64,000 bases of DNA, from assembly GCA_963740185.1 (NCBI GenBank), contig CAVUDH010000001.1, positions 60,752 through 124,751 of the forward strand, written 5' to 3'. Source of the DNA: an uncultured Verrucomicrobiae bacterium (lineage in GTDB: Bacteria; Verrucomicrobiota; Verrucomicrobiia; Chthoniobacterales; JAATET01). The translations under genes were made by a program, and so were the position numbers. This document shows, in pieces, positions 16,497 to 62,914 of this stretch (positions are counted from its first letter, which is position 1; every line of letters begins with the position of its first letter). The notes under the pieces were generated by a model. It saw only the letters and a list, made by a program, of their open reading frames with translations, ran no database searches and was not told the DNA's origin.

Positions 16497-16499
16497 CCT

Positions 16500-17780: not shown

Positions 17781-17811
17781 AATTTTTAACGAGCGGCGGC
17801 GTTTACTTCAA

Positions 17812-22490: not shown

Positions 22491-22526
22491 AGTCCGCCCC
22501 CTTGCCTAGGCGCGTAGTATCCTCCC

Positions 22527-28095
<5,569 letters not shown>

Positions 28096-30017: not shown

Positions 30018-30647
30018 TTACTCTTCTTCGGCGGGAGCCGGTGCTTCGGGAAGCGGGTAGTCGCGCTTCAGCGACATAAGATACGAAACGAGGTCCTGAG
30101 CCGGTTTCGTCGGGACGATCTCGTAGCCGGGTTTCGGCTGCCAGGGTCCCTCGACGGCAACCGCCAGCTCGCTGCTTTGGCCGGAAATTTTCCGCTCTTC
30201 GAAGAGGTAACGGTAAGCTGGCATATTCGAGCCAGGAGTCATCACGGTCGGCTCGTAAAGCATGCGGTAGAGGTAGGCAGCTTCGGTTTGCCGGAGTCCG
30301 ATGTTGCTCAGATCCGACCCGATGCGTTCGATTCCGAGGAACGGCATCGTCGTCCGGAGGTAATCGCGCGGCACCGTCTGACGGGGTCCGAGCTCGCGGG
30401 TGATGTCGGTGAACTGGGGAAGCGGGCGAACCTGTTGACTGTGGCAGGAGACGCAGCCATTCGCTGCGTAAACGTTCTGACCCAGCGTCGCGGTCCCGGG
30501 CCACGGAGGGGGGACCATGGCACCCGTCTCCTCGGAAACCTCAGGTTGCAGGCTACCCTGGCTCACGTAAGCGTAAGCCACGATTCCCAACCAGGAGGAC
30601 GAGAAAACGACCAGAATTCCCAAAAATAATTTCGGCAGCGTGCTCAT
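30018..30647 (-). CDS. cbb3-type oxidase subunit II-like cytochrome c (CcoO/FixO-like)
   Basis: GQNVYAANGCVSCHSQQVRP, RIGSDLSNIG, PGSNMPAYRYLF. Confidence 0.85.
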   Translation of the reverse strand: MSTLPKLFLGILVVFSSSWLGIVAYAYVSQGSLQPEVSEETGAMVPPPWPGTATLGQNVYAANGCVSCHSQQVRPLPQFTDITRELGPRQTVPRDYLRTTMPFLGIERIGSDLSNIGLRQTEAAYLYRMLYEPTVMTPGSNMPAYRYLFEERKISGQSSELAVAVEGPWQPKPGYEIVPTKPAQDLVSYLMSLKRDYPLPEAPAPAEEE

Positions 30648-32117
30648 ACGGAAACAACCTCCCTCTCGTCCACCGCCGGGGTCGACGCCGTGCTGACCTT
30701 TTCCGCCACAACGATCGGACGGGCCAGGGTCACGGCCAACGTCGTGGCAAACATCACGTTCACCGCCAACAGGGTCAGCTCGCTGATCGCGACCATCACC
30801 CGGTAGGGCTCGGCGAATTTAAGACTGTAAATAAAAGTCACTCCGGGATCGCGCATCGAGAATCCCTGAGTCATCCCACCAATCAACGCACAAGTGACAA
30901 TCATTCCGAGTGCCGCAACGCTCAGCCAGAGAATCACCGGGCGCAGACCGATCAGAGCCGTTTGCGAGCCGTAGAGCCTCGGTAGCACCGAGTAGATGGC
31001 TCCGAAGAACGTGAGAGTCACCATCCCGCCAACCACCAGCGTCGACAGGCCCGAGGTCACCATCGTGAAGTGGTAAAGACTGTTCACGGACGGGAAGACG
31101 ATCATCGATTGCAGAGCGACGAACAGTGCGTAGCAGGAGAACCCGGCCACAAAAAAGGGCAGCGTGACGCTTTGGTCCGGAGTTGGCGCGCCGGCTGCCG
31201 TCATCCGCAAGTTCGCGCCGACGGCCAGCATGGGGAGCAGTAGCAGCACCGTGGCCACCACGCTCGCGCTGACCAACCAGACCGGAACCGGACCACCAAT
31301 CAGTTGATTCAGATCCGCTCCAATTTGCCAAAACGAGCAACGACCAAAATCCGAAAACTGCCAATCCGTAGCTGTAAACCGGACGGCCCAGCGCTCGGGG
31401 AATGAAGTAGTAAATGAGGCCCAACGCGATTGGCACGAGCCAGAGATGGATGATCCCGTTGGTGAACCAGGCGTGGATCGGACCCGTTGCCGAGCCCGGC
31501 ACCGGGCTCCAGACGAGCAGCACATTTGCGGTCGCGTAGAGCCACGGGAAAGCGAGGAACGCCGCCAGCAGATACCACATCGAGACGTAGACCGCTCCCG
31601 GTCGGCGCAGACGGAACATCACAAAGGCCCACGACGCGATCAGTCCGTAGGCGATCAGCAGGATCGGCGAGATTCCAGCCGGCATCTCGAGCAATCGCAG
31701 CGAGGAACTTCCACCCCCGAGAATGGACAGCACGCCGACCAGCAGGGCCAGGTTCCAAAGAATCGCACCGCAGATGAGCAGAGCGTGGTTACGCAACTCA
31801 ACCCCACTCAGACGAGTCGTCAGCCAAATTCCGAGACCGATTCCAGCCTGCGAAGCCCATCCGTAAATGAGCGCGTTCATCGACGCGGGTTGGACCCGTC
31901 CGTAGCTGAGAAAGGCGAGGCCATCAAAGAGGCGGGGCAGAACCAGCTCGAACGCGGCCAGCGTCGCGAGCAGCGATCCGACCACCAGCCACACCGTTCC
32001 CAGGCCCACGAAGAGCAGGACGGGGCCACGAGTGGAGCGGTCGATCAGAGCCTGACCGCTGTAAGCCAGAGATCCGGGATTCATCGAGGGATGGACGTTG
32101 GACGTTCCGGCGGTCAT
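30644..32117 (-). CDS. cbb3-type oxidase subunit I-like protein lacking heme/Cu histidines (frameshift near 31315)
   Basis: CcoN-like YGRVQP..NALIYGW, LLEMP, YVSMWY, YYFIP...PVYSYGL..FGFW, LIGGPVP, HFT; His ligands replaced. Confidence 0.78.
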
Positions 32118-34687: not shown

Positions 34688-34977
34688 CTCGGTTACTGCC
34701 CGCGTCCAGAAAACGCGAACAAGCGTGTTACTTGCCCGACTCCGACAACGTCAACGATTTTAGCGATTTTCAGCGTCCAAAAACCCATTTTCAACGCGTC
34801 GGCGCCAGAGGGGTTTTGATCGCTCGCGGATTGCATTAGTTTTTCTTATACCTCAAGCCGAACCGGGGTCCAGTCACAATCCGCCGAATCTTGGCCAGGC
34901 GACATTGAAAATAGGTCTCGGAACCGTTCGTCCTTGTCGGTTCCGGCTCGCAGCGGAAACTCTTGGGCAATCTTTCC

Positions 34978-37045
34978 ATGAATTCGCCGTCCTCACTGCA
35001 CCGCTTCGTCCCCACGGGTCGCACCTCCCTTTCCCACGCCCGCCCCCTGCCACTCGACCGCTTCCTTTTCGGTGCCTGCTACTACCCGGAGCACTGGGAC
35101 GCGGCGACCCGCGAGGACGACGCCACCCGAATGCGGGCGGCTGGTTTCAACGTCGTTCGAATGGCGGAGTTTGCCTGGGACCTCATTGAACCTGTCGAAG
35201 GCGCATTCGATTTCACCCTGTTCGACGAGACCATCGCCCACCTCGGCGTGCACGGCATCGACACGATCCTCTGCACGCCGACCGCGACACCGCCCCGCTG
35301 GCTCACCGAGCGCCATCCGGAGATCCTGCGGGTCGACGGCGCCGACCGCCCGATGCGCCACGGCTCCCGGCAACACGCCGACCTCGCGCATCCCACGTTC
35401 CGCGAGCACTCCCGCCGGATCACGCGAGCGATGGCCGGGCATTTCGCCGCGAACCCCCACGTGATCGGCTGGCAGACGGACAACGAGTTCTATTGCCACC
35501 TGGACAACGACCACGGGCCGGCGACGCAGGAGGCCTTTCGGGAGTATCTGCGGCGGCTCTACGACGGCGACATCGTTGCGCTCAACCGCGCGTGGGGCAC
35601 CCAATTCTGGGCGCAGACCTACACCGACTTCGAGCAGGTCGAAACCCCACGCCCGATGCGCCCGACCTTTCTCAATCCCGGACACGCCCTCGATTATCAG
35701 CGCGCGCTGAGCTGGATCGCGACGGAATTCCAACACGATCAGGTCGAGCTGCTCCGAGCCGCGAATCCGGATTGGTTCGTGTTTCACAACGGGATCTTCG
35801 GCGGCATCGATTTCCGCGGACCCTTCACCGAGGACCTCGATTTCCTCGGCTACGACGTCTACCCGTTTTTCGAGAAAAACTCCGCGCTCCGCCCCGCCAC
35901 GCACGCATTTAACTGCGACCGCGCCCGCGCCTGGTCCGGCAATTTCCTCGTTCCCGAGCACCAGGCCGGACCCGGTGGCCAGGCACCCTACTTCCACAAC
36001 AATCCCGAGCCGGGCGAGATGCGGAGGATGACCTATGCCACCATCGCACGCGGGGCCGACAGCCTGCTCTACTTCCGCTGGCGCACCTGCCGCACCGGAG
36101 CCGAGCAGTATTGGTGCGGCATCCTCGACCACGACAACGTCCCGCGTCGCCGCTACGACGAGACGAAGCAGGTCGGTGAGGAATTGGCAAAAATCGGACC
36201 CGTCCTCATGGGATCGACCGTCTCGTTCGACGTCGGGATCGCCATGGCCGCCTACGACGTCCGCGAAGCGGATGCGACCTATTCGCAGGGTTTGCCCTCG
36301 AGCCAGAATCTGCGGCGAGGCCGTTCACGGCGAGTTCTGGAAACGGGGTTTCACCGTCGGGTGCTGTCATCCCACGGATCTCCCCGCCGACCTGAAACTC
36401 TACGTGATTCCGCAATGGCTCCTCTTCGATCCGGCGTGGGTCGCGTCGCTGGAACGCTGGGTCCAGGCGGGCGGCACGCTCGTCATCGGTGCCCGGACCG
36501 CCACCCGCGACCTCGAAAATCAGATCATTCCCACCACGCCCCCCGGCTGCCTCGCGTCGCTCGCAGGAGTGACCGTCGTGGAGAGCGGATGCGAAAATGA
36601 CCCCGCTCGCGTCAAACGAATCGTCGGCGATTCGTTCGCCACCGCCGGAGAGCGATGGTACGAAGTCCTGGCTCCCGACGCGGGCGCCGAGACGCTGGCC
36701 AAATGGTCCGGTCGCCACGTCGACGGGCAGCCCGCCATCACTCGCCGACCCGTCGGGCGGGGCCGCGTCGTTTACGTCGGAACCTACCTGACGGCAGGCG
36801 TCGCGAGCGATCTCGTCGAGATGTTGGCCAAACACGCCGGGCTCTCATCCCCAATTCCGAATCTCCCGACCGGCCTCGAGGTCGTCCACCGCAGCACGTC
36901 CGATCACTCGCTGTGGTTCATCCTGAATCCGACGGACGAGCCGCTTCCACTCCCGGACCTCCCGTCCGGCGAACGCCTCGTCGACGACGCGACCGGCAAC
37001 AGCCTCCCCCCCAACGGAGTGATCGTGATCAAAACAACGGGATAG
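34978..37045 (+). CDS. Beta-galactosidase, GH42 (frameshift near 36313)
   Basis: GACYYPEHW, RMAEFAW, CTPTATPPRWL, WQTDNE (acid/base), LNRAWGTQFW, PEHQAG (nucleophile), YFRWR..GAEQYW; no signal peptide evident. Confidence 0.92.
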
Positions 37046-37073
37046 TGTGTCCGAGATTTATCGATGAAAACGG

Positions 37074-37287
37074 CAACGCCAACCGCGTTGAATCCTGCAG
37101 CCCAGAGTTGCCCGTCGCGGGCTACTCTGGGTAGAGCACGATGAGAAAAACTACCCTGAAGGGGTAGTATCAGCGCGACGGGATAGAATCCCTTTGGGAT
37201 ACATGCACGGTATCGGTAGCCCACCCGGGGTAGTCGCTCCTTCGTCGCGACAACCCCGGGCTGGGGGGTGCAACGCCGTTGGCGTAG
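37074..37287. repeat. About 214-bp composite inverted repeat (REPIN/MITE-like) between convergent genes
   Basis: Left caacgccaaccgcgttgaatcctgcagcccagagttg matches the reverse complement of right caaccccgggctggggggtgcaacgccgttggcgtag; internal ccctgaagggg and ccctttggg hairpins. Confidence 0.75.
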
Positions 37288-37370
37288 TGCTTTCACCCGC
37301 GCCCGACGCGCCGTTTAATCACGGACGACCTGAAGAGCCTCAAGTCTCAACCGTCGAGTTGGTCTCGGCC

Positions 37371-40300
37371 TCACGGGGCGAACTGCTGACTCGCCAGCAC
37401 TCGCCACTTGTAAAAGTCATTCAGCGTGTCGTTCGTGGATGTGCTCGTCGCGAAGTCGATGTTCACCGCATCGAGATCCACGTAGCGCTCGATGGTGGTC
37501 GAGCCGCGGTATTCAGCCTCCACGACGCCCGTCGCTTCGTCCCACTGCGCCTGATTGGTACCGGGATTCTTCAGCGCCTGCGCCTTGTAGTGGACCGTGT
37601 AAGTATTCGATTTCGTCGTCAGCCGCGGATAGATGTTCGTGTAAGGCCGCTCACGGAGATTATCACCGGTGAGAAGATGAGAATTCCAAAAGGCGCTGCC
37701 CTGCGCATCGGTGGTCCAATTCTGGCCCTGCGGAACGAGGAACACATCGCAAATTTCGGTCGCGGATCGGAAGATATCCCCATCGTCAAAGCGCTTTTTG
37801 AACTGCCTTAACGTGCCGTTCGCCGCGCTGAGATTCAGACTCTCACGAGGGTTGCGCGAGAGCATGCCGTTCGTATTGACCGCCTTGTATCCACCGAGCG
37901 CATCTGCATTGTCGAGCACCATGACCTGCTCAGCTTTGAGAACTGCGCGCAGGCTGCTATCCCGATTGATGTAGGTAAACGGCATGATTTGGTAATTCAT
38001 ATTCACCTTGCCCGCCGTCGACATTGGCTCACTGATAGGATACGGCTCGACGATCGGCATCCAAAAGAGATCCATCCACAAGTGATCAGCCGGAGCTCCC
38101 GGCAGACTGCTTCCGTCGCCCTGTCGACCCTTCGCCCCCGGGTGCTGACCGCTCGGGTCCGGGCGAAACAACAATGTCTGCCACGGTCGGCTCGTGTTCA
38201 CCCCCGTTGATAGCGATCCAAACATTCCCGCCGAAGGAATTTGACGATTCGGAGTGAAGAATGTCCGGGAGACCGATTGAAATTCCTGACTGTTGTCGAA
38301 ATACGGAGCGGTCGAACCGGGCTCGATGTTCCCCTCATCCGGCTTGTTGATGTAGCCGCCATCGGAATAGTGCGCCAGCCCCGTGTCCCAGTCGCCGGGA
38401 ACGGACGATCCCGAGCCTCCCGCAAACGCGCCATTTAAATGCTTCGGTGCAATCGGCACACCATCAGCCTTGTAGGTCAGCCCCTCGACCAACCGGCCAC
38501 TCGTGCGTCCAGCAAACGGACGAAACGCCACTCCTGCGACCAACCCGTGCGCAAAGTGACTCGTCGACGTCCAATCTTCGTGAGGAACGTAAGCCGAGGC
38601 TGGAACGTTTCTCCCGGATACAATCCGGGGGTCACCCCCTGCCAATACCATGCTCCGCACGACATCCTCTTGATGCAGTTGTCCCATCGTGCCGTCCACC
38701 GGCCCCGTATCGAACCGATCAAACGGCGCGACTGACGGACTTCTCCCATCCTGACGAAACTCAGTGCCCACCAAGCGCCCGTTTGCCGGACTGAGACCGG
38801 GAACGGGCAAGGTGGTCGGCCCCACCGGAATCTCCATCTCGATCGTTTGAACCAAACGGTTAGAATCGATCATCGGCGGGATGGCCTCTTCCTGCCCGGA
38901 ATAGATCCGAATCGTGATGCGACCACCTTCGAAACTCATCGTCTCGCCAGTGTTATTCGGGATGTCGAAGATTTTACTGAAAAACGGAAAACGCGACTCC
39001 TCGGTCTCTTCGTAGCTCAACGTCTTAGGCAAACTGGCGTTGCTCGTCGCACCCTGCGTGCGATCCGCCACCATCGATCGCCAATCGACGGTGCCACCGA
39101 CCATGCGCCCGTGGAAGAGATCGTTGTTGGATACCCAAACGCTCCCACGCGCCGGGAATCCCATCGATTCCGCCGGAAGGCCGGCCCCTCCCAGGCGAAA
39201 TGAGTCTAGCCCTTCGATCTCGACCAGAAAATCGGAGTTGTAATCGCTCCACCCCATCGCCGGGACGAAGAACTGGAGCACAAAGATCGCGAGCACCTGA
39301 GTCGTGTTCTGAGGCTGCGTCGCGTTGTCGTATCCCGCAAAATCGGGTGCCGTCGCCGTTCCGATTGCCTGCCGCTGGCCGGACGCCACCCCGACCGGCG
39401 AAGCTCCCCCGTCGTTTTTTCCGACGCCGACGAACATGATCGACGCCTCGCTGACCAAGGGAAAACGTCCGAAACCTTTGGTTTCGGAAGGTCCTCCGCC
39501 CGAATTCGACGGGATTCGAATCGGCACGACCTGACCGTTTCCGGGAATTGTGTAGATGCTTCCGCGCCTGGCTTGATTGGTCCCCCCATAGGGCTGACTC
39601 ACCGTCGTATCGCGCAGGTTGGTGATCCGAATGTAATCGAACATCTCGGTGAGAATCTGATTGCGATCCAGCGGGTATTTATTGGCAAACGACCCGCCGA
39701 ACCCTGGTATCTGCCGACCGGATAGACCCTGCAGATAGGCGTAAAGATCCCGATTGCGTGCGATCTCGGCGTAGTCCGCAGTCGCGCTTCGGCGGTCTTT
39801 TCGCTGGAAGAAATACGGCTCTCCGTCGAGCGTTGAAACGAACGCCAGTAATCGATCCGTTGCATTGCGAGTAGCGTCGCTATCGGTCGCGTGAATGGGC
39901 CACATCGCGATCCGCGGCAGGTTGAAGAGATTCACCTCCGGCGCGCGGCTATTCGCCGTCAGGAAGAACTTTGCGGATTCGAGATCAGCCTTGTCGAGAT
40001 TGGGCCCGCTTCCCCCAGAGTTACGCTCAACGTTGAAGAGCAATTCGTCGACTGAAGCGTAGAGCCGGTCTCCGTCGAGAGTCAGACTGTCTGAGATCTG
40101 CGAGATATTGCTCGGAGTGGTCTCCGATTCTGATTCGGCCCCGTTGGAAACTTGCACGTTCGATCCGCCCGCCTGCACGCGCGGCGCGATACTGTAAATA
40201 CTGTCGAATGTCAGAGGTGAAGACTTCGCTGGTAACACCGCACTCAGGCTAGTCATTGCGGGATGCCCCGGGTAGCGTTGAAACTCATTCCTGGCCGGTT

Positions 40301-41117
40301 GATAAGTTGCGAGATCGCGATCGTATCGGCTCTGGACCCGCGGCGTATCCCAATACGCGCCCTCGCTGGCGGTATTGATGTTCACCTTGGAGGTATCATC
40401 GTCGGTCCAAAAAGCGATTCGACCGACGATCGAGTTGTTCTCATCCGCAGTCGGCACATCCGCCACGGTTCCCGAGCCCGTGGCGGCTTGGAAGCTGCCG
40501 TCCTCCAACACGTAGAGCCACTCGACTGGCATGGGCGCGCTTTGATCGGGCGTGGTCGGAGCACCATCAATCGTGAATTGATCAATGGCACCCTCCGACG
40601 CCAAACCCTCGGAGGGAGTCGTGTCGATCGCGGCGGGATCGAGAATGGGGTAGGCCTCCTCGTCGACACCATCGACGGGCACAACGACTGGAGCGTTCAA
40701 GTCCGTCCATCGCGCGGTATCAACCGTCCAATCCGCAATCTTCGCGACTTCAGCCGCCGGATCGATCGTCGTCCCGATCATCGCGGGTGCGGAATACAAC
40801 TTGAACGCTTCCTTCAGGTTGCCCGAATTATCGAAGGTCCGGATCATTCCCGGCTGCGAAGCCCACGCGACGTCCTGTCCCTGCAGAGTTGCGAGGTTAA
40901 TCTGCGACTGCACCAGACCGACGGCGGATTCGGACAACTGCCGCGCGGAGATGAGCGAGCTGTATCCCGCCGCGGCGGATCGTTCGGTCGTCGCTCGATT
41001 CAAGAACGCAATCGCCAGCGCGACCACGAGCACGAGCACGGACAGGACGATGACGAGGGCAAAACCCGCATCGCGGCTCCTGCCAGCGGGAGATTTTTGG
41101 GGGACACGGATTTTCAT
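37371..41117 (-). CDS. Verru_Chthon cassette protein A (large PilX-like protein, about 1250 aa)
   Basis: Prepilin-like GFALVIVLSVL; WASQPGMIR, RIAFWTDDDTSKVNINTASEG, QPARNEFQRYPGHPAMTSLS, DLFWMPIVEPYPISEPMSTAGKVNMN, LTGDNLRERPYTNIYPRLTTKSNT. Confidence 0.9.
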   Translation of the reverse strand: MKIRVPQKSPAGRSRDAGFALVIVLSVLVLVVALAIAFLNRATTERSAAAGYSSLISARQLSESAVGLVQSQINLATLQGQDVAWASQPGMIRTFDNSGNLKEAFKLYSAPAMIGTTIDPAAEVAKIADWTVDTARWTDLNAPVVVPVDGVDEEAYPILDPAAIDTTPSEGLASEGAIDQFTIDGAPTTPDQSAPMPVEWLYVLEDGSFQAATGSGTVADVPTADENNSIVGRIAFWTDDDTSKVNINTASEGAYWDTPRVQSRYDRDLATYQPARNEFQRYPGHPAMTSLSAVLPAKSSPLTFDSIYSIAPRVQAGGSNVQVSNGAESESETTPSNISQISDSLTLDGDRLYASVDELLFNVERNSGGSGPNLDKADLESAKFFLTANSRAPEVNLFNLPRIAMWPIHATDSDATRNATDRLLAFVSTLDGEPYFFQRKDRRSATADYAEIARNRDLYAYLQGLSGRQIPGFGGSFANKYPLDRNQILTEMFDYIRITNLRDTTVSQPYGGTNQARRGSIYTIPGNGQVVPIRIPSNSGGGPSETKGFGRFPLVSEASIMFVGVGKNDGGASPVGVASGQRQAIGTATAPDFAGYDNATQPQNTTQVLAIFVLQFFVPAMGWSDYNSDFLVEIEGLDSFRLGGAGLPAESMGFPARGSVWVSNNDLFHGRMVGGTVDWRSMVADRTQGATSNASLPKTLSYEETEESRFPFFSKIFDIPNNTGETMSFEGGRITIRIYSGQEEAIPPMIDSNRLVQTIEMEIPVGPTTLPVPGLSPANGRLVGTEFRQDGRSPSVAPFDRFDTGPVDGTMGQLHQEDVVRSMVLAGGDPRIVSGRNVPASAYVPHEDWTSTSHFAHGLVAGVAFRPFAGRTSGRLVEGLTYKADGVPIAPKHLNGAFAGGSGSSVPGDWDTGLAHYSDGGYINKPDEGNIEPGSTAPYFDNSQEFQSVSRTFFTPNRQIPSAGMFGSLSTGVNTSRPWQTLLFRPDPSGQHPGAKGRQGDGSSLPGAPADHLWMDLFWMPIVEPYPISEPMSTAGKVNMNYQIMPFTYINRDSSLRAVLKAEQVMVLDNADALGGYKAVNTNGMLSRNPRESLNLSAANGTLRQFKKRFDDGDIFRSATEICDVFLVPQGQNWTTDAQGSAFWNSHLLTGDNLRERPYTNIYPRLTTKSNTYTVHYKAQALKNPGTNQAQWDEATGVVEAEYRGSTTIERYVDLDAVNIDFATSTSTNDTLNDFYKWRVLASQQFAP

Positions 41118-41712
41118 CAGAGCGATGGTCGGTAGGTCAGCACCTTCCCGGTGATGGGGTTGATTTGGAGGGTGTAGTAATTTTGGGGAGGACTCGCCGT
41201 GTCGGTCGCCGCCTGAACGGTCATCCAATTCGAGTTCTTCATCGATCCATCGAGCTGCCCGGTCGCCCGGAATCGGAAACGCGGCGAACTTCAGCACTCC
41301 CGTCGGCTCCCGAAGTCCATCGTTCCCGTCTCGGTCGCGTCGCTCCAACAGCGGCGAGAGCGTCGTCCCGGGGCTGATGTAAATTGCCCCGGGGAACTTC
41401 ATCAATTTCCCGACGACGCCCTTGCCATCCGGCGCCGGGTCCTTGCTCCAGACCTGCACCGCGCGCCACTGCGGCGGTGGCGTCGGCACCGTCGGTAAAT
41501 TTGAAAAACCGAACGTAAACGTCCCGGTTCTTCGAGACCGCCTCCTGCCGCGCGAGCACGAAGGCGTCACTGATCATCTGACCGGCCCGCGAGACGCCGG
41601 AGCCGGCCAGCACGCTGTTCAGCGCCGGCACCGCGACGGCCATCAGCACGACGATCACCGCCGTCACGACCAGCAATTCGACGAGGGAAAACGCCCGGGA
41701 CTCCGTCTTCAT
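41117..41712 (-). CDS. Verru_Chthon cassette protein D (FimT/GspH-like pilin; several frameshifts)
   Basis: AFSLVELLVV prepilin motif, LARQEAVSKNRDVYVRF, C-terminus NYYTLQINPITGKVLTYRPSL; stop overlaps the A start (TGATG). Confidence 0.8.
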
Positions 41713-42766
41713 TCCGCGCTCCATTTACTCGCTCGAATCGGCACCGCGCTCGAGAAGACTCGGTATTCGAATCGGCGGCGTCACGTTGTTCAACGCGACC
41801 TTCAGCGCATCAAGATCGTCCTCGTATTGGGCCGGTGTCGTGAATTTCCCCGCGAAGGCCTGCGTGATCTGGCTGGGCTCCGAGCTCGAACTCTCCCGCC
41901 AACCGATCCGCGGACGCCTCGTCGATGGCGATCATCGTCACGAGGACCACGGGAGGCAGTTGATTCGCCTGAGCGGGCTGGGGATTATCACCCACGTTCG
42001 CGGTCGATTCGTAGGAGTAGGCGCGATCCGAGATACTCGGATTGGAGGCGTTCGGGTACTGCGCGAGCAGGATCAGCGCGAGGATGTTCTCCGACGCCAC
42101 CTCGGCGTCGTCGATGTGATCCGAATACCAACCCTGACCCGGTCGTCCCGTAGATCGTATTGTCCTCCGTCGGCACAATCATCTGCATCAGCCGGTAACG
42201 GTAGCGCTGATCGCCCTGGGTATCCCTCACGTGCGGCCGGGAGCTTCAGCGCATTCTCCGCCCGGTCAAACTGGACGAAATACCCACACGCATTGAGCAA
42301 AGTGGACATCCCACCGTAATTGGTTTCGTCCGATGTCTGGCTGACCGGTGCCTGGAAGAAGATCGCCTGACCAAAGTCCGAAGCGTTCGGGAATCGCAAA
42401 ATCGCCGTTTGGACCGATCTGAAAACTCAATTCCGACTGCCGCCCGTAGCGATCAGGGGTGAAACTTTCGAGTGCGCTGGAGTTGCTGGCCCGCTGGTAA
42501 GCCGCCATCGAACTCCCACCCGAATCGAAGTAATCGTAGTAAACGTTCAGCGTCGCCTGACTCAGCGTGCGGGTGATGAGTTGGAACGCATTCCGCGCGT
42601 CCTGGAAGGCTTCGATCTTTGCCGTGCTGCGACGCCAGATGCGCGAGGTGTCCTCGATCACCGAAAACACGAGCACCATGAGGACGCTCAAGACGGCGAT
42701 CGCCACCAGAATCTCGATCAGCGTGAATCCCCGCCGACCTCGCCGCTCATGTCCGCCGGTGATCAT
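41709..42766 (-). CDS. Verru_Chthon cassette protein C (PilW/GspJ-like pilin; several frameshifts)
   Basis: GFTLIEILVAIAVL, AFQDARNAF, LSQATLNVYYDY, YGRQSEL, AIFFQAP, LLNACGYFV, NQLPPVV..TMIAIDEASA, YRVFSSAVPIRASKWS. Confidence 0.82.
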
Positions 42767-42788
42767 ATCGATTCTAGCCTTCGTCTCG

Positions 42789-43284
42789 CTAACTCCCAGC
42801 GGCGACGGGAATGCTAAAGGTTCCCGAAGTCTCGTTTTCCGCCCCGTCGACACTGGACGTTCGCGACCTCGACCTCGATCACCTTCACGTTGCTGGCCAA
42901 AGCCAAGCCCTGGGCCGACGCCATTTGCGATCCCGGAAAGACGATATCTTCGACCGAGGTCGTGACCCGGTAACGGGTGAAGTGCCCCTTCCCGGTCCTG
43001 CAACTGGCCTTCGTCGTCGAAGTAAAGATTCGCGCCGTCGTATTTCGCGTCGAGCTCGGCGAAGGGCGTCAGCGCCGCTTCGCTCGAGATCCGGTGACTG
43101 ATCATGCTCTGCGCGGTGTCGTCCATCGCGTCGCGCATCGTCGTGAGCCCGACCGGGATCAAACCGACCGCAGCCACGAGCCCAAACGACGCGATCCCCA
43201 GTGCCAGGGTGACTTCCACCAGACTAAACGCCCGGAGGCTGCGCAATCCGACTGGATCGGACGTTGGATGGAGCTTGATTTCAT
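42789..43284 (-). CDS. Verru_Chthon cassette protein B (PilV/GspI-like pilin; frameshifts)
   Basis: RAFSLVEVTLALGIASFGLVAAVGLIPVGL, YFDDEGQ. Probable ATG at 43284 with a lost A in a homopolymer, or TTG at 43246. Confidence 0.8.
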
Positions 43285-43314
43285 ATTTCGCGGCTTCATT
43301 GGTGTCGCTCGTAG

Positions 43315-43330
43315 TGCAACATCCGTGCCA
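43315..43330 (-). promoter_or_regulatory. Sigma-54 (-24/-12) promoter of the pilin-like cassette
   Basis: Minus strand reads TGGCAC-GGATG-TTGCA, an exact TGGCAC-N5-TTGC consensus about 30 bp upstream of gene B. Confidence 0.8.
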
Positions 43331-43381
43331 GTTGCATTACGCGCAAGTCCTCGGGCTATTTGCAAAATCTTCGCTTTCATC

Positions 43382-44461
43382 TTATCGCTTCCGGTAGACG
43401 CGGACGTAATCGACGAACGCCTGTGACATGACTCGGGTGTCGTCGTTTCGGAAATCTTTGGCCCGGAAGAGCGGCCATCGCCCTGATTCGGATCCCAGGC
43501 GTTGGGTTGAAATTCCAATCGTCAGCATCATCATCATGTCGACCGGATCCGTCGGAATGTTCTCGGTGAACGTGTAATAGACCTGACCGTCGACCGAGCA
43601 CTCCATCGAAGTCGGCGACCAATGGAGCGCGTAGGTGTGAAACTCCGGGTCCGTCACGTCGACGAACGACGTCGACGGAGGCATGGTCCCCGCGCTGAAT
43701 TGTTTCGATTCGGACGAGCCCCAGTGATTCGCGACGTTAAAGCTCTTGTTCATGTACTTCGGCGCACCCTTTGCGATTTCGATCACATCCACTTCGGTGC
43801 CATCGGTAGGATTCCCGTTGTAGGCACGCGTCTCGGTGAAGAGCCAGAATGCGAACCACGTTGAATGACCCGACCACCTGGTCGCTCCGCACCCGCGCCG
43901 TAATGTAGAGATCGCCGCCCCGCGGGCTGACAAACTTCCCTTCGCCCGGTTCCCATTTCACTCCGGTTGGCTCCGACTTAACCCAACGATCCGGATACCC
44001 CGAGACGAGATAGGCCGCCTTCCCGGCTCGCCATGCGCGTTTGTCGGCCCGACTTGTCGGTCACGATGCGCGATCAGCAAGATTTCCATCCCCGTCCCGC
44101 CAGTGGTTCCCGGTCTTGGAACTGAACATCTGCGCCGTATTCGGATCACTCCCGTCGGACCAGCGAAGACCCTTCTCGGTCTTTTCGCGAAAATCCGTCG
44201 GCGTGTAACCTAGAAACGGATACCACTGAGTAATCTTCGGATCGGTCTCGTCACCGGTGATCGCCCTCGAATTCATCCGACCACTCAAGCACCCAATCGC
44301 CGTCGGGTAGATAATCCGTCTCCACCGCCTCACCCACGATCTCATTCTGCTCCCCGACGGTCGCCGTCGAGGAGACCTCGGACTGAGCACCTGCCACCCC
44401 GACTACGAGTGCGAACATGCGGTCCGGACGGAGAATGCCGCGAGTCAGGAGACAGGTTCAT
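43382..44461 (-). CDS. Secreted glycoside hydrolase family 16 (multiple frameshifts)
   Basis: Signal-like N-terminus; WVLEWSDEFEG, WFAFWL, GTEVDVIE (ExDxxE), FHTYALHW, SVDGQ, FVDYVRVY. Confidence 0.78.
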
Positions 44462-44546
44462 AAGTATTTCAGGGGGGGGTGACAGACGGCGACCTTCAGG
44501 GTGCAGCGTGACGTCGGTCGGAAGAATTCTCCCATCCCACCCATTC

Positions 44547-44574
44547 TGCAACGTCAATCTAATGTTGCAAATAC
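44547..44574. promoter_or_regulatory. Candidate operator in the GH16/GntR divergent region
   Basis: tgcaac-N11-gttgcaaatac; the right half is the exact reverse complement of gtatttgcaaca at 48736-48747. Confidence 0.55.
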
Positions 44575-44599
44575 TCACCCTCGGTTTCACGTTGCGCGC

Positions 44600-45649
44600 A
44601 TGCCGCGAAAGCCGACCATCTACGTGAAACATGCTCGTGCCGGGATTCTCGAACTGCTCGAGACCAACCCGAAAAGCGAACCCCTCCCCACCCTCCGCGA
44701 GCTCGGCGAGCAGTTCACGATCCACCCCTCGACCATCTTTCGACTCCTGCGGGATCTCGAGACCGAGGGCGTCGTGTGGCAGGGTCCCAGCGGTCGATTT
44801 TTTCACTCCAGCGCCCGCCGGAAGACCCTCCGCCGCGCGCCCGGTCTGCTTCATCGGACGCGAAATGTGGCAATGGAGTCAGCTCTACCAGGAAATCCTG
44901 GAAGGCGTCGCGGAAGTCTGCTCGGCCAACGGGAGCCCGCTGATCTTTCTGTCGGCACCCACCCTCGTTCAGGTCCCGGTCACCCTGCAGCCACCGGTCT
45001 TCGCCACCCCCCACGGCCAGAAGCGCGAGCTCCAGCGCCTCCTGCCTTCCGTCCCGCGCGGCTGCGCCGGCCTGCTGTTCGATCACCTGTGGAGTGATTC
45101 CACCCTCAAAGCCGCTTCCCTTCCCCAACGGCGAGATGGTCCAGCTCCTCCATGGATCCGGGAAAAACGCCGAAGTCCTGATGCCGAATTACGACGCCGG
45201 TGCGGACATGGTCGCGCACTACGTCGAGACGAGGAAGTTTGACCTCCTCTACCTCGTGACTCCGTTTCAGGGCGAACCCGCCATCGCCGCCATGCTCGAC
45301 TCGGCTGCGCTCCACCCTCGCCCATTTCGACGTGCGGGAGATCGATTTCCAAGACCGCGAGACCCTCACCCAGATCATCGACGGCACCCACGGACACGTC
45401 GGCGTCGTCTGCCCCGAAGACTTCACCGCCTGCGGAATCGCCGACATGGTCGCGCGATCCGCCAAGTCCTGCGACCAGCACCTCACCGAGATCGTCGCGA
45501 CTCAAGGCACCGGCGTCGTCACGGCACCGCACTCCCGTCTTCGCTTTGACTACCGACGACTCGGCCGCGCCGCCGCTTCCCACATTCTCCACGGCACCAA
45601 TTACAAACCCATGCGCCCCAGCTTCGTCACCTCCCTCGAAGACGACTGA
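44600..45649 (+). CDS. GntR-type wHTH regulator with a LacI-like sugar-binding C-terminal domain (frameshifts)
   Basis: LPTLRELGEQFTIHPSTIFRLLRDLETEGVV..GPSGRFF; YQEILEGV..., VVCPEDFTA, FDYRRLGRAAASHIL. Confidence 0.75.
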
Positions 45650-45679
45650 CGCTGGAAGCCGGAGCCCCGGGCCCCAAGT

Positions 45680-45727
45680 CTCCTCACGTCGACCACTACA
45701 CCCGTGGAAGCGGAGGTCACGACGCTC
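45680..45727. repeat. GTAG-footed REP-like pair
   Basis: ctcctcacgtcgaccactac plus gtggaagcggaggtcacgacgctc; same units as 2948-3007. Confidence 0.65.
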
Positions 45728-45832
45728 GACCCGACCGCCGCCACGCCAGCAGATCGAATCGAGTCCGCGATCCCTCTATTTGCATCATCTCCGAATGTTG
45801 CCGGTTCACCCACTCTCCCCCACCCTGATTTG

Positions 45833-47950
45833 ATGCCCCTCCTCGCCTTCGCGAACCTCCACTCGGCAGACTTCCTGATCCTCGTCGCCATCATCGCAGT
45901 CGTCGCGGGATTCGCCCTCCACACCCGACGCTACACCCGCAGCGTCGCCGATTTCCTCTCCGCCAACCGCTGCGCCGGCCGCTACCTCCTCACCGTCGCC
46001 TCCGGCATGGCGGGCATCGGAGCCGTCTCCATCGTCGCGATGTGGGAACAGTTTTACCAAGCCGGGTTCACCGCCCAATTCTGGGGCACAATGATGGCCC
46101 CCCTCGGCCTCCTCATGGCCCTCTCCGGCTGGATCATCTACCGCTACCGGGAGACCCGCGCCATGACACTGGGCCAGTTCTTCGAAATGCGCTACAGCCG
46201 GCGACTTTCGCATCTTCGCGGGCATCCTCTGCTGGGTCAGCGGCATTCTGAACTACGGCATCTTCCCCGCCGTCACCGGTCGCTTCCTCATCTACTTCCT
46301 CGGCCTGCCCGTCCACCACTGGACCGTCCCCGGCCTCGGACTCGAGCTGAATGTCACCCTCGGCATCGTCATGGCCATCGTCCTCGCCGTCGCCGTGTTC
46401 ATCACCCTCACCGGCGGCCAGATCGCCGTCATGGTCACCGATTTCATCCAGGGGCAGCTCAGCAACATCGTCTTCCTGATCCTCCTCGTCGTGATGCTCT
46501 GGATGTTTCCGTGGAACGTCATCGTCGAGACGCTCGAACGCGCCCCCGCGGGCGAGTCCAAGCTCAACCCCTTCGACACCGGCTCGCTCCCCGATTTCAA
46601 CCCCGCCTTCTTCTTCATCCTGCTCTTCCTCACCGTCTACAACTACATGGTCTGGCAGGGCGCGCAGGGCTACAACAGCTCCGCCATCAATCCCCACGAG
46701 GCGAAAATGGCCAACCTCCTCGGGCAGTTCCGCGCCGGCGTGACCTACCTCCTCATCCCGCTGGCCGCCGATCTGCGCCTACGTGCTCATGAACGCACCC
46801 GTCCACGAAGCCGCCACCGCCGCGACGACGTCGACGCTCGCCGCCATCGGCGATCCCCAGATCGCCACGCAGATGACCACCACCGTCGCGCTCTCGCAGA
46901 TCCTCCCGGTCGGCATCATGGGACTCTTCGTGTCGCGTCATGCTCATGGCCGCCGTCAGCACCGACACCACCTACCTCCACTCGTGGGGCAGCATCTTCA
47001 TCCAGGACGTCCTCACCCCCATCCGCCAGGCCCGCGGCAAAGACCGAACACATCCCCCCCGCGCAGCACCTTCGCTGGTTAAAAACCTCCATCGTCGGCG
47101 TCGCCCTCTTCGCCTGGACTTTCAGCATGATCTTCCCGCTCCGCGAATATATCCAAATGTATTTCCAAGCCACCGGCGCGATCTTCACCGGAGGCGCCGG
47201 AGCCGTGCTCATCGGCGGACTCTACTGGAAACGCGGCACCACCGCCGGCGCCTGGGCGTCCATGATCGTCGGCTGCACGCTCGCCGTCATCAGCGTCCTC
47301 ACGATCAATCTCCTCTGGCCCAACGGCATCCCCGCCCTCCAAGCCGCCTACCCCGCCGTCGGGTGGATCCAAGCGATGCCCGTCGAATTCTGGATCAACG
47401 GCATCCAGATCGCCTTCCTCGTCTCGCTCATCGCCGTCGCCACCTATCTTCGTCGTCTCCCTGCTCTCCCCCAACCCCCACGTCGACATGGACCGCCTCC
47501 TCCACCGGGGGAAATATTCAGGCCGCCGCGCCCGAAGGCGCCGATCACATCGCCCCACCCGCCACCGGCTGGCGCGCCTTCGCCTTCACCCCCGAGTTCA
47601 CCCGCGGCGACAAAATTATCTACTGCGCTAAACATCGGCTGGGTCCTCTTCTTCTTCACCGCCTTCCTCACCATCTGCATCTGGCAACTCTTCTCACAAA
47701 TGGCCGAACGAGTGGTGGGCCAATTGGTGGCTCTTCAACCTCATCTTCATCGGTGCCACCGGCACCATTACCACCGTCTGGTTCCTCATCGGCGGCATCA
47801 AGGATCTACGCCGACTCTTCGCCCGCTCGCCACGATCCAACGCGACGAGAAGATGACGGCACGGTCACCACGAAGCAGATCAGAAATACGAGGGTTAGAA
47901 CCGCAGACTGCTCGCAGACCCCGCAGATGGTGACTGGAATCTCTGGTTAA
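45833..47950 (+). CDS. Sodium:solute symporter family transporter (many frameshifts; end approximate)
   Basis: SVADFLSANRCAGRYL, YRYRETRAMTLGQFFEMRYSR, TGGQIAVMVTDFIQG, WQGAQGYNSSA, AAVSTDTTYLHSWGSIFIQD, GGLYWKRGTTAGAW. Confidence 0.85.
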
Positions 47951-48029
47951 AAATGTCTTCAGATCCTCGTCCAGCGTCCGCGAAATCCCGCTGACCCGCT
48001 TCGCCGTTCAAACCCAATCATCACCCACC

Positions 48030-48707
48030 ATGAAACTTCCCACGACTCTCTCCGCTCATGCCTCTCGTTGTGCTCCTCACCGTTGCGCCGCACTCATCTC
48101 CATGGACCAAGCCAATCCGCGTTTCCGAAACCGGACACCACCCTCCACCTCGGCCAACCGTGGAACGACTCAGCCCGACCCCGGCTTCCACCCCGGCGAC
48201 GTCCGACTTTCCTGGACTCCAACCGCGCTCACCGTCGAAGCCGATCTCACCGACGACCACGTTTTCACCGCCGCCACCGGCGACAACCAGAAAACGTGGG
48301 AACTCGGCGACGTCTTCGAGATCTTCATCCAGCCCGTCGGCCGCCCCGACTACGTCGAACTCCACGTCGTCCCGACCAACCACCGCGTCCACGCCCAATT
48401 CCCCGGCCCCGGCCTGATCGCCAGCCCGAACGACCCCCTCCTCGCCTTCGACCAGAGCCATCGTCGAGCCCGTCGGCTTCACGAGCACCGCCACCCAGAC
48501 CCCAAAGGGCTGGAAGGTCACCGCCACGATCCCGGCCTCGGTCTTGACGTCGCGAAGTTCACCCCCGGCCAACGCCTCCGCATCAGCTTTTCCCGCTACG
48601 ACGCCACTCCCGATCAGGACCCCGTTCTCTCGACCACCGCCGCCCACCCCGTCATCCGATTCCACCGCCCCGAAGAGTGGACGGAGGTCGAACTCGTCGC
48701 CGATTAA
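48030..48707 (+). CDS. CBM9-like/DOMON-like sugar-binding protein (local frameshifts likely)
   Basis: VRLSWTPTALTVEADLTD, TWELGDVFEIFIQP, YVELHV, LRISFSRYD, FHRPEEW. Confidence 0.65.
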   Translation: MKLPTTLSAHASRCAPHRCAALISMDQANPRFRNRTPPSTSANRGTTQPDPGFHPGDVRLSWTPTALTVEADLTDDHVFTAATGDNQKTWELGDVFEIFIQPVGRPDYVELHVVPTNHRVHAQFPGPGLIASPNDPLLAFDQSHRRARRLHEHRHPDPKGLEGHRHDPGLGLDVAKFTPGQRLRISFSRYDATPDQDPVLSTTAAHPVIRFHRPEEWTEVELVAD

Positions 48708-48735
48708 GATTTTGAAAACGCCGCGGGATGCTCCT

Positions 48736-48762
48736 GTATTTGCAACAGTTCCTTTTATTGCT
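48736..48762. promoter_or_regulatory. Candidate operator upstream of the PEP-CTERM gene
   Basis: gtatttgcaac-N10-attgct. Confidence 0.5.
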
Positions 48763-48856
48763 TCTCGAGCTGTTGCGATTACCGTTCCTCATAACCCCGG
48801 AAGAGATTTGCCAACGCATTACCTGCCAAATCGTATCCGATAAACCCCAATCCATC

Positions 48857-49609
48857 GTGAAAATAAAAAAACTTCCGCTCATCCTCTCCTCTCTGTTGCT
48901 CTCGGCCGCTCTACCTGCGGTTGGTCAGTCATACATCGAAAATTTCACAGGTTTTTCGAATAGCCTTACTTCGGGCCAGACGGGCGGAGACGAGGGTCAA
49001 ATAATCGCAGACTCAATTGGTGCGAATTCGAGCGCGTCATCTGGGAGCGTTCCCGCCATTGACGGCACTTCGCTGTTCCTAACGATTGACACCACTAGTG
49101 CTGCGAACAGCTTCGGTGGATTTATTAGGACCACGATACAGCCAGGATTCAGCGCAGGTGACTTAACTTCCTCTGACGCCGCCGATTACAACATTGTTTT
49201 TGATCTCCAGGCTAATGGGTTTACCCCCGTTAATGTCGATGTGTTCCTGAACTTCAGAGATTCGACGAATACGAACGTCTTTGGTCAAATCAGCATCAAT
49301 CAAGGCAACGCTGCGTTTTCCGTGTTCGTCAACCAACTCAATACCAACAACACAGTTTCGGTCAGTCTGCCCCTTAGTGAGTTCTCAGGGCTCCCTGCTA
49401 ACGTATCCGGACTCGCCAGCGCTGACCGATTCTCATATCAAATCAACTCACGCTCCCCCTTGGCGAACTACTCGGCTGGCAACGCCAACGTCTTGGTAAT
49501 TGACAATGTAGGCATCGTCGCCGTCCCTGAGCCTTCATCCGTCGCCCTTCTCGGCCTCGCCGCCGCTGGTGTCGCGATTTTCGCTCGCCGTCGCAATCGT
49601 GGCGCCTGA
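48857..49609 (+). CDS. PEP-CTERM sorting-domain surface protein
   Basis: Signal peptide; Ser/Asn/Gly-rich, Lys-free mature region; C-terminal VPEPSSVALLGLAAAGVAIFARRRNRGA. Confidence 0.93.
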   Translation: MKIKKLPLILSSLLLSAALPAVGQSYIENFTGFSNSLTSGQTGGDEGQIIADSIGANSSASSGSVPAIDGTSLFLTIDTTSAANSFGGFIRTTIQPGFSAGDLTSSDAADYNIVFDLQANGFTPVNVDVFLNFRDSTNTNVFGQISINQGNAAFSVFVNQLNTNNTVSVSLPLSEFSGLPANVSGLASADRFSYQINSRSPLANYSAGNANVLVIDNVGIVAVPEPSSVALLGLAAAGVAIFARRRNRGA

Positions 49610-49645
49610 TCCGACCTCGAGCGACGACCGTTGCTCACACGTTTC

Positions 49646-49674
49646 GAAAGCCACGCCTCCTCGGCGTGGCTTTC
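49646..49674 (+). terminator. Hairpin, probable intrinsic terminator or mRNA stabiliser
   Basis: gaaagccacgcc-tcctc-ggcgtggctttc right after the PEP-CTERM gene. Confidence 0.65.
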
Positions 49675-49719
49675 TGCTATCCTGAAACCTCGAATTCACG
49701 AACCCAATTCAGCTTCCCA

Positions 49720-50328
49720 ATGACGACACTTGTATCGACCCTCTTCGCCCTCGCCATCGCATCCGTCTGCTTCGCTAACGTCCTCTACGAAAACCCAGAG
49801 GGTGCCGGCTCCGCTCCCGAAAGCGGCCTCACCGTCGAACCCGGCGAAGCCCCCGACGGCACCCCTGCACTCGTTATCGGCGGTGATCCTGACGGCGAAT
49901 ATTCCAAGTTTTACAACGAGAGAGACCTCAACGGCACCCCCACGCTTTTCATCGACATTCATCCCGACGACCGAGGCCAACCCTATACCTTCTCCTACGA
50001 CGTCTACCTCCCCGCCGACAGCGAGATCGAATCCAGCCAGATCAGCCTCCACTTCTACCGTGATTTTCCGAAGGATGGGAGCATCAACTTCGACGACGAC
50101 GAGAAGAACAAGATTAGCGAATCATTCTATGGGAAAACCCTCTTCGACGTCACCGACCAATGGCAGACGGTCACCGTCAGCGGAACGATCCCAGCCGTGG
50201 ACCAAGCCGACGTCGACATCGATGCCCTTCGCTTCAACATCGCGTTCGAGCAAATCGATTTCGAGAGCAACACCAATCCAATTTCCGCCTACGTTCGCAA
50301 TATCGTGTTCAAAACGACCAGCGAGTAG
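49720..50328 (+). CDS. Secreted acidic hypothetical protein, possible CBM-like beta-sandwich
   Basis: Signal peptide; GQPYTFSYDVY, TDQWQTVTVSGTIP, AYVRNIVF resemble jelly-roll CBM strands. Confidence 0.6.
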   Translation: MTTLVSTLFALAIASVCFANVLYENPEGAGSAPESGLTVEPGEAPDGTPALVIGGDPDGEYSKFYNERDLNGTPTLFIDIHPDDRGQPYTFSYDVYLPADSEIESSQISLHFYRDFPKDGSINFDDDEKNKISESFYGKTLFDVTDQWQTVTVSGTIPAVDQADVDIDALRFNIAFEQIDFESNTNPISAYVRNIVFKTTSE

Positions 50329-57613: not shown

Positions 57614-57625
57614 CTCCGTCCGCCC

Positions 57626-62869: not shown

Positions 62870-62914
62870 GCTGATCGACGAAAGAACGCACGCCTCCCAC
62901 AGACCCACGGCCAC

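Follow-up and report, generated by a model that had tools for sequence, protein, structure and literature searches.

How do Verrucomicrobiota, which take up glycans without the SusCD proteins of the Bacteroidota, capture a polysaccharide and move it across the outer membrane? These bacteria play a major part in breaking down complex and sulfated polysaccharides, both in soil and water and in the gut. The question is raised by a locus in a 64,000-nucleotide stretch of DNA (the window; positions 60,752–124,751 of contig C1) from a Verrucomicrobiota bacterium whose assembly comprises 3.48 Mb in 19 contigs at 79.9% completeness. Judged by its gene content, the window appears to contain a small sugar-regulated glycan-utilization locus, in which a four-gene cassette encoding proteins A, B, C and D of the Verru_Chthon families lies among sugar genes. 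These families have stood in TIGRFAMs for years without a function, and a full-text literature search on the family name found no paper. A first-pass annotation of the window had proposed that the cassette is a substrate-specific pilus-tip module. Our results make this a concrete candidate on two pillars: A is predicted to have a GspK fold with a large variable insert, and genes for carbohydrate-active enzymes (CAZymes) and for sugar regulators are far commoner beside cassettes than in random regions. We tentatively suggest, giving it somewhat less than an even chance, that the cassette encodes a sugar-induced alternative fiber tip of the type II secretion system (T2SS) or type IV pilus (T4P) type, whose enlarged, variable A subunit would bind the target glycan for cutting by a family 16 glycoside hydrolase (GH16) and uptake of the products.

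Genes were identified by Pfam and TIGRFAM/NCBIfam scans of the open reading frames (ORFs) of the window together with frame-by-frame reading, and every gene that the first-pass annotation had named was recovered at about its expected place. The four cassette genes are adjacent on one strand and are read in the order B-C-D-A, from 43290 to 37371, an order repeated in another cassette locus (L019).

42800..43290, minus strand: cassette protein B, a small prepilin (TIGR02598, residues 1–78; tblastn)
41712..42790, minus strand: cassette protein C, a GspJ/PilW-like prepilin (TIGR02599 in two ORFs; tblastn in frames -1, -2, -3, -1 and -3)
41121..41724, minus strand: cassette protein D, a GspH-like prepilin (TIGR02596, E 4e-16, N-terminal part; tblastn in three frames)
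37371..41120, minus strand: Verru_Chthon cassette protein A, 1249 aa, intact (TIGR02600)

Among cassette loci, the gene order varies (B-C-A-D, B-C-D-A and A-B-C-D). Closer reading did not confirm that the genes are intact: D, C and B carry frame changes, as do the neighboring genes for GH16, the regulator, the sodium:solute symporter (SSS) and the family 42 glycoside hydrolase (GH42), and A is intact. Because of these frame changes, the stop/start coupling described from C to A is not readable here.

Protein A scored 1020.8 bits with TIGR02600 (cut-off, 332.3) over model positions 1–1296. Residues 51–1249 were modeled with AlphaFold2 from 75 aligned sequences, with a pLDDT of 87.7 and a pTM of 0.91. 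When the whole model was compared with the PDB by Foldseek, no row reached E<=0.001 and all were at chance level. An exhaustive structural aligner placed GspK first (3ci0_K; Z 10.4, rmsd 3.5, 253 of 280 residues aligned) and XcpX second (5vtm_X; Z 10.1), followed by ComZ (6qvi; Z 5.6), a tip pilin of the Thermus competence pilus, with no further row above Z 4.8; the structural matches listed included no beta-propeller of the kind that a comparison with PilY1 would call for. Since the GspK alignment runs from model residue 1 to residue 1199, a pilin-type core is predicted to be built from both ends of A, with about 900 residues inserted between them. According to this model, A is a minor pseudopilin with the GspK/XcpX fold to which some 900 residues have been added. 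The resemblance to GspK lies in the fold and not in the sequence, as the GspK family model NF037980 scored 17 bits (cut-off, 130) and covered the N-terminal 70 residues only. The conservation profile of A reaches its minimum at about residues 570–890, which form part of a beta-rich central region. A separate model of this central domain (residues 530–850) had a pLDDT of 77.6.

Prepilin methylation motifs were found on B, C and D, and an N-terminal hydrophobic pilin helix was found in all four cassette proteins, so that family scans and pilin helices bear out the prepilin-type N-termini described earlier. B exceeded the TIGR02598 cut-off (62.2 versus 51.4 bits) over model positions 1–78 of 151 only, owing to a frame change. 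The two C fragments scored 104.7 and 43.4 bits (TIGR02599 cut-off, 256.5) and the N-terminal part of D scored 59.7 bits (TIGR02596 cut-off, 70); whole-protein scores for C and D are unobtainable because frame changes break both genes. Weak family matches linked C to GspJ/PilV (also ComGE) and D to GspH. In profile searches of the PDB, C and D matched via the N-terminal pilin helix only, and B gave two chance-level PsaE rows only. Together, the GspK/XcpX fold of A and the prepilin family matches of B, C and D support the view that the cassette is a minor-pilin-type set.

The genome encodes a complete secretion pseudopilus elsewhere:

contig C7, 129000–148999 (L157), at about 3545–14109, minus strand: canonical T2SS operon gspG-H-I-J-K-(L)-M-(?)-D-E-F, adjoining nusA

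The GspG of this operon scored over its cut-off (95.5 bits), and its GspK, a protein of 310 aa, matched NF037980 over model positions 2–298 of 307 with E 1.2e-16 and 61 bits, below the cut-off of 130. The cassette lies on C1 in a CAZyme locus, outside this gsp operon of C7. Since the T2SS operon has its own GspG-H-I-J-K, the cassette is an extra, alternative H/I/J/K-like set with a giant K. Also encoded in the genome are four secretins, some eight ATPases of the T2SSE type and a PilT that scores above its cut-off (431 bits), and a PilX_N-type minor-pilin set lies in another region (L057) whose flanks are not CAZyme-rich. As the first-pass annotation had stated, the window lacks SusCD genes: none of the window ORFs scanned matched Plug, a TonB-dependent receptor or SusD, and the whole genome, at its given completeness, yielded one Plug match (contig C15) and no SusD match.

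The proposal that CAZyme, SSS and GntR genes cluster around cassettes was examined in two matched comparisons. In test 1, a search with A gave 20 cassette loci in 14 kin genomes, and these were compared with seeded random 20-kb regions of the same genomes lying at least 30 kb from any A match. ORFs from a custom gene caller were scanned with Pfam. The 207 flank ORFs exclude the 20 A-matching ORFs and retain B, C and D, which lowers the flank rate. The controls comprised 264 ORFs from 16 of 20 regions (15 in full, plus the first 14.8 kb of L050), with L051–L054 (74 ORFs) and the last 5 ORFs of L050, 79 in all, left out. Glycoside hydrolase (GH), carbohydrate esterase (CE) and sulfatase genes accounted for 31 of 207 ORFs in the flanks and for 5 of 264 in the controls (odds ratio 9.1, p 8e-8); the 31 include three BD-FAE/Abhydrolase_3 esterases, without which 28 remain. 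Counted by locus, such genes were present at 13 of 20 loci versus 4 of 16 control regions (p 0.023), or at 11 of 18 versus 4 of 16 when two orthologous pairs were merged (p 0.045). LacI/GntR/AraC regulators with a periplasmic-binding-protein domain were found at 8 of 20 loci and in none of 16 control regions (p 0.0046). The kin genomes are not independent of one another, and the gene caller is crude.

Test 2 compared 16 cassette loci with 16 random 14-kb controls, by seeded choice, from three named genomes; A–D-like ORFs were removed from both sets, leaving 141 flank and 153 control ORFs to be scanned. GH, polysaccharide lyase (PL), CE or sulfatase genes made up 27 of 141 flank ORFs versus 10 of 153 control ORFs and occurred at 15 of 16 loci versus 7 of 16 controls (p ~0.006). 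LacI/GntR regulators occurred at 11 of 16 loci versus 2 of 16 controls (p ~0.003; both p values are hand-computed, two-sided hypergeometric). Three of the CAZyme-positive controls (L141, L143 and L144) turned out to contain divergent genes of the cassette type that were absent from the E<=1e-40 list, and these three account for 6 of the 10 control matches and both control regulators; without them, the controls gave 4 of 135 ORFs, 4 of 13 regions and no regulator in 13 regions. The same three make up three of the eight random 14-kb regions drawn from Chthoniobacteraceae SH-KS-3 (5.6 Mb); all have GH/PL flanks, and L141 and L144 have a LacI gene. The true number of cassettes therefore lies above about 20.

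The proposed enrichment of CAZyme genes near cassettes thus held in both tests, as did that of GntR genes in the form of LacI/GntR regulators. The linkage to PEP-CTERM genes that the first-pass annotation had mentioned did not emerge: a search for the C-terminal motif gave 9 true matches in 227 flank ORFs (10 matches, one of them false) versus 8 in 343 ORFs of the controls. In the genome of the window, both other true cassettes likewise have glycan genes beside them, L055 adjoining GHL6, sulfatase and GH1 genes and L056 adjoining GH39, an intact GH42 and LacI. Neighbor families vary by locus (GH38/92/130; GH106 with RhaT; GH29; PL; GH16 with LacI; sulfatases), a pattern that, since the families change from locus to locus, is as expected of substrate-specific modules. 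In L138, a cassette is followed by a second pair of GH16 and LacI genes. Cassettes and enzymes share a strand and are separated by short gaps. Large proteins with an autotransporter-associated PATR repeat were seen near cassettes in L020, L030, L034, L132 and L143, an observation that carries no control comparison.

These neighborhoods also bear on a reading in which the cassettes, much like multiple minor-pilin/PilY1 sets, provide alternative T4P tips for general adhesion to surfaces or particles, residing in variable regions that also collect CAZymes and having no substrate-specific glycan role. The family is present in multiple copies and is highly divergent, several cassette flanks contain transposase and integrase genes, 7 of the 20 test 1 loci have no CAZyme neighbor, and the genome encodes PilT and four secretins, all of which would suit such tips. 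Against adhesion of this general kind stand the LacI/GntR regulators at 8 of 20 and 11 of 16 loci, versus 0 of 16 and 2 of 16 controls, the common strand and short gaps of cassettes and enzymes, and the PilX_N-type set, a separate minor-pilin set that lacks CAZyme-rich flanks. We regard general adhesion as distinctly unlikely.

At the locus in the window, the cassette is accompanied by the following genes:

34963..37045, plus strand: GH42 beta-galactosidase (PF02449, E 2.6e-115; GH42M; PF08532, E 3.8e-26)
43382..44461, minus strand: secreted GH16, first gene of GH16-B-C-D-A (PF00722, E 1.2e-7, C-terminal ORF)
44462..44599, no strand: divergent control region between GH16 and the regulator (inverted repeat TGCAAC-N11-GTTGCA at 44547–44569)
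44600..45650, plus strand: winged-helix regulator of the GntR type whose C-terminal domain is of a sugar-binding type (read in three frames)
45833..47933, plus strand: sodium:solute symporter SSS (PF00474 and TIGR00813 on fragments; frame reading; segments of a codon-usage hidden Markov model, HMM)
48030..48707, plus strand: small protein of 225 aa, weakly like CBM9_1 (translation; the middle of the ORF looks out of frame)
48728..49609, plus strand: PEP-CTERM-anchored protein (PF07589, 28.8 bits versus a cut-off of 20.7; TIGR02595)
49666..50328, plus strand: small secreted protein of 220 aa (translation; signal-like N-terminus)

With GH42, GH16, a GntR-type regulator and SSS within 13 kb, the locus is a CAZyme gene cluster, or polysaccharide-utilization locus (PUL), in the broad sense. 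Two gene strings run apart from a single spacer of about 140 bp: on the minus strand GH16-B-C-D-A, five genes on one strand, about 90 bp separating GH16 from B, and on the plus strand regulator, SSS, CBM9-like protein, PEP-CTERM protein and secreted protein. Sugar regulons under local control are usually arranged in this way; GH16 and the cassette may be co-transcribed, and the inverted repeat in the spacer is a possible operator. A plus-strand G8 run, which reads as C8 on the coding strand, is also present in the control region at 44472–44480, just upstream of the GH16 start codon.

The remaining assignments differ in firmness. GH42 is split over two frames (ORFs 34963–36600 and 36035–37045), with PF02449 and PF08532 in different ORFs; the N-terminal motif and signal-like start of GH16 are read in frames other than that of the PF00722 ORF. 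The fragments of the regulator, a gene broken by frame changes, had no Pfam match in the scan of window ORFs; in relatives, intact GntR regulators with a Peripla_BP_3 domain adjoin cassettes. The label "CBM9-like" is weakly supported: the 225-aa ORF had no Pfam match at E<=0.01 and matched weakly, in tblastn, a CBM9_1 protein in L027 (E 6e-4 in a 15.6-kb database), which adjoins A in another genome. CBM9_1 proteins of 226 to 1290 aa recur by cassettes (L027:4878–5558, L126:16128–20000, L131:3–1571 and L135:15666–17939), the smallest of them being the one that the 225-aa ORF weakly resembles. For the last ORF, described as secreted and CBM-like, the signal-like N-terminus is present and a Pfam match is absent; a language-model lead is all that points further (ESM Atlas DUF4627, 0.94; a cluster with CBM_4_9 on 16% of members). 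The nearest relatives in 16 to 30 kin genomes were 45–49% identical for A (full length), 45–53% for an SSS piece and 52–56% for GH42. Since those of A and SSS are too distant to be orthologues, the locus looks specific to this genome among those searched. In the 16 kin genomes covered for GH42 and SSS, the nearest relatives of both are likewise too remote to be taken for the same genes.

How might such a locus work? The cassette would supply accessory minor pseudopilins of the GspI/J/H/K type, B, C and D being small prepilins and A a GspK-like tip subunit. Together, the four proteins would make up the tip complex of a fiber, either pseudopilus or pilus, whose building machinery has its genes at other sites (the T2SS operon, the four secretins and PilT), and this tip would be made only when the sugar signal of the locus is present. 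At the cell surface, the enlarged A subunit would bind the target glycan and hold it for GH16, and the substrate or its fragments would be brought to the envelope, taken up by SSS and then cleaved by GH42. Assembly at a fiber tip, glycan binding and any import role of the cassette are what we infer; glycan capture or import by A, which the first-pass annotation had cast as the adhesin for a galactan-type glycan, would be plausible. If tips are substrate-specific, a cassette beside a CAZyme cluster could serve as an annotation marker for SusCD-free PULs. A bolder version would make the cassettes interchangeable sugar-induced tips of a "glycan harpoon," each A binding one class of polysaccharide and retraction through a secretin pulling the polymer into the periplasm. 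This version is unlikely; if true, it would give Verrucomicrobiota the SusCD-independent route of "selfish" polysaccharide uptake that has long been sought for them, akin to DNA uptake by the competence pseudopilus.

The main rival of the glycan-capture reading is a cargo-specific secretion tip. Here, the cassette would replace GspH-I-J-K on the housekeeping T2SS when induced, and A, with no glycan binding, would recruit or expel the co-encoded exo-enzymes, namely GH16 at this locus and sulfatases and other GHs elsewhere. One T2SS secretes many substrates with a single tip, which makes a tip for each cargo less expected. The GspK/XcpX fold of A, the complete T2SS with its GspG in the genome and the co-directionality of the cassette with a signal-peptide GH16 all fit secretion, and a report on Verruconatronum alginivorum proposes T2SS export of alginases encoded beside a PulG-like pseudopilin (PMC13274419). 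A further point in favor of secretion comes from L134, a locus of Spartobacteria bacterium LR76, where a tandem pair of T2SSE-type ATPases with MshEN domains (14815–18181) is found some 3 kb away from a cassette; this cassette is flanked by GH42, LacI and heparinase-type lyase genes. On the other hand, a set of H-I-J-K genes is already present in the T2SS operon, a tip subunit of 135 kDa greatly exceeds GspK in size and would crowd the secretin vestibule, cassettes (about 5 to 22 per genome) are far fewer than secreted enzymes, and many flanking genes encode cytoplasmic enzymes, transporters and regulators. Taking these together, we consider a cargo-specific secretion tip rather unlikely, if the strongest of the alternatives.

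Several results weigh against a glycan-binding fiber tip, the reading that we tentatively favor. The GspK fold of A fits a secretion pseudopilus at least as well as a retractile pilus. A had no Pfam domain in the scan of window ORFs and no sequence relative in the profile search of the PDB, and its central domain gave only generic beta-sandwich matches (Z<=4.6) and chance-level rows in Foldseek against the PDB; since the matches are generic, the fold of this domain speaks neither for nor against a carbohydrate-binding module. SSS genes, whose enrichment the first-pass annotation had expected, were not significantly enriched in test 1 (3 of 20 loci versus 0 of 16 regions, p 0.24). Cassette loci with no CAZyme or sulfatase neighbor numbered 7 of 20 in test 1 and 1 of 16 in test 2. 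Part of the co-localization may come from both gene classes sitting in the accessory genome, because the random regions are mostly core genome. In the window itself, GH42 is convergent with A, that is, on the opposite strand, and its closest homologues (52–56% identity, in three same-genus genomes) lie away from the sites at which A homologues were found. Finally, if the roughly 20 frameshifts of the locus are real, all of it except A is dead, a matter taken up below.

What was already known is that the Verru_Chthon families exist in NCBIfam, that minor pseudopilins form tips and that multiple minor-pilin sets occur. Among the matches listed, a search of the Verrucomicrobiota and CAZyme literature returned no "minor pilin." The closest structural relative is the T2SS tip GspK-GspI-GspJ(+GspH), known from 3ci0 (ETEC) and, as XcpVWX of P. 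aeruginosa, from 5vtm; the cassette resembles it in the fold of A and in having three small prepilins. It differs in that A has 1249 aa versus about 310–330 aa for GspK and in that the cassette lies outside the gsp operon, is multicopy with a variable gene order and, unlike the T2SS tip, adjoins sugar regulators and CAZymes. Type IVa pilus priming complexes consist of minor pilins plus PilY1, and Myxococcus xanthus has several alternative sets of them. The cassettes likewise occur as several alternative sets per genome, each with one very large tip-associated protein; that protein is itself of pilin fold (GspK-like), whereas PilY1 is a separate protein, and the present genome has a separate PilX_N-type set besides its cassettes. 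ComZ of Thermus thermophilus (6qvi) is a precedent for a tip subunit that binds the polymer taken up, in its case DNA. Like A, it combines a pilin fold with a large inserted domain, but its match to A is weak (118 residues aligned at the Z of 5.6 given above) and the inserted domains differ.

Within the phylum, several reports connect pili with glycans. For Akkermansiaceae, glycan attachment and uptake have been linked to a T4P-like pilus locus, MUL2, and uptake of the selfish kind has been reported (PMC13174399); in Akkermansia, pili genes are needed for mucin use (PMC12418764; bioRxiv 10.64898/2025.12.30.696933). MUL2 of Akkermansia (Amuc_1098–1102) shares with the cassettes the proposal of pilus-type genes for glycan acquisition without a classical Sus system in the same phylum, and it is one conserved locus that encodes PilM/N/O-like proteins and an archaeal-type pilin. 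The cassettes, unlike MUL2, are GspH/I/J/K-like, multicopy and placed within individual CAZyme loci, and Amuc_1102 matched the central domain of A at background level only (Z 4.0). The report on V. alginivorum describes a PulG-like pseudopilin gene in an alginate-induced cluster, with 67 homologues in the genome, and a pseudopilin over-expressed on alginate (PMC13274419). This is a single major-pseudopilin-like (PulG) gene, whereas the present locus has a four-gene H/I/J/K-like set with a giant K. With the SusC/SusD PULs of the Bacteroidota, the locus shares the clustering of enzymes with a regulator that senses sugar, a transporter and putative glycan-binding proteins of the cell surface in a single, putatively inducible locus; the window ORFs scanned gave no match to a TonB-dependent transporter or SusD, and the analogy would be a functional one.

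The A family is large. At E<=1e-3, 2177 cluster representatives (50% identity) were found, and at E<=1e-30, 1422, with a best identity of 70%; the nearest named relatives of A are Chthoniobacterales. A pattern scan of one-genome-per-species contigs gave 701 matching stretches, at least 648 of them confirmed, in named Verrucomicrobiota records, the titles of which include Chthoniobacterales ("Spartobacteria," Chthoniobacteraceae and Terrimicrobiaceae), Verrucomicrobium, Methylacidiphilales and others. Five named genomes contained 7 to 24 matched pieces each, corresponding to roughly 5 to 22 genes. Random draws of genomes searched with TIGR02600 found the family in 0 of 70 at the level of the phylum (E<=1e-60) and in 1 of 45 at the level of the class (E<=1e-25); because the pattern scan gave at least 648 confirmed stretches, these figures seem to reflect a first-look filter insensitive to a long, divergent family rather than absence. 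Cultured carriers include Chthoniobacter flavus Ellin428 and Verrucomicrobium sp. strains such as BvORR034 and BvORR106.

Are the frame changes real? Read by eye, and as minimum counts, they number four in C, two in D, one in B, three in GH16, three in the regulator, seven in SSS, one in GH42 and none in A, and tblastn with intact relatives confirmed that the pieces of C and D are in different frames. Similar breaks affect other genes of the window. The housekeeping genes for IspG (GcpE; 57614–59463), the COX1 subunit of cytochrome oxidase (30647–32117) and a DHH-CBS-DRTGG-DHHA2 pyrophosphatase (6005–7827) are each spread over two overlapping ORFs in different frames. At 22518–28092, two UvrA-like ABC ATPase ORFs of about 1000 and 990 aa share about 390 bases in different frames; they represent either a tandem pair of paralogues or a further frameshift. 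When same-genus proteins were compared with this genome, 115 of 266 were orthologue-like, covering 37,001 aa, and 16 frame breaks were found in 13 genes, or about 1 per 6.9 kb; rpoB and rpoC were intact. In a codon-usage HMM, the 41–48 kb stretch of the window had 9 same-strand frame switches per 7 kb, versus a genome median of 3, a 95th percentile of 7, a 99th percentile of 10 and a maximum of 19, which places the locus at about the 98th–99th percentile. Long homopolymers were rejected as the cause, as the D-C-B stretch contains a single run of at least 5 bases. No in-frame stop was found inside any single-frame high-scoring segment pair of tblastn or by eye.

The density of these breaks raises the possibility that the frameshifts are real and that this copy, in which only A is open, is decaying and non-functional, a possibility that concerns this copy only and is compatible with any of the other readings. 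Decay would explain why about 20 frame changes fall in 6.8 kb when 115 conserved genes of the same assembly show about 1 per 6.9 kb, why the locus ranks so high in the genome for frame switches, and why long homopolymers offer no explanation. Yet a decaying locus would also be expected to show nonsense mutations and deletions, whereas the damage here consists of 1-base indels with no in-frame stops; A, in the middle of the locus, is free of frame changes over 3.75 kb; essential ispG and COX1 are frameshifted in the same window, as are 13 of the 115 conserved genes genome-wide; other frameshift-dense patches reach 19 switches per 7 kb; and the genome is 79.9% complete with 19 contigs. Completeness this low with so few contigs is the usual picture of an unpolished long-read assembly. 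Because the damage is by indels only, essential genes are broken and completeness is low with few contigs, the frameshifts of the locus are most likely consensus errors of the assembly, and decay of this copy seems improbable. Denser patches, with 13–19 switches per 7 kb, were seen at C17:241–249 kb, C18:80–91 kb, C1:121–128 kb (the window from 60.2 kb onward) and C15:0–10 kb. Adjoining the patch on C1, at the end of the window (62870–63994), is a homologue of the RhuM-family "virulence protein" (PF13310, E 2.2e-106).

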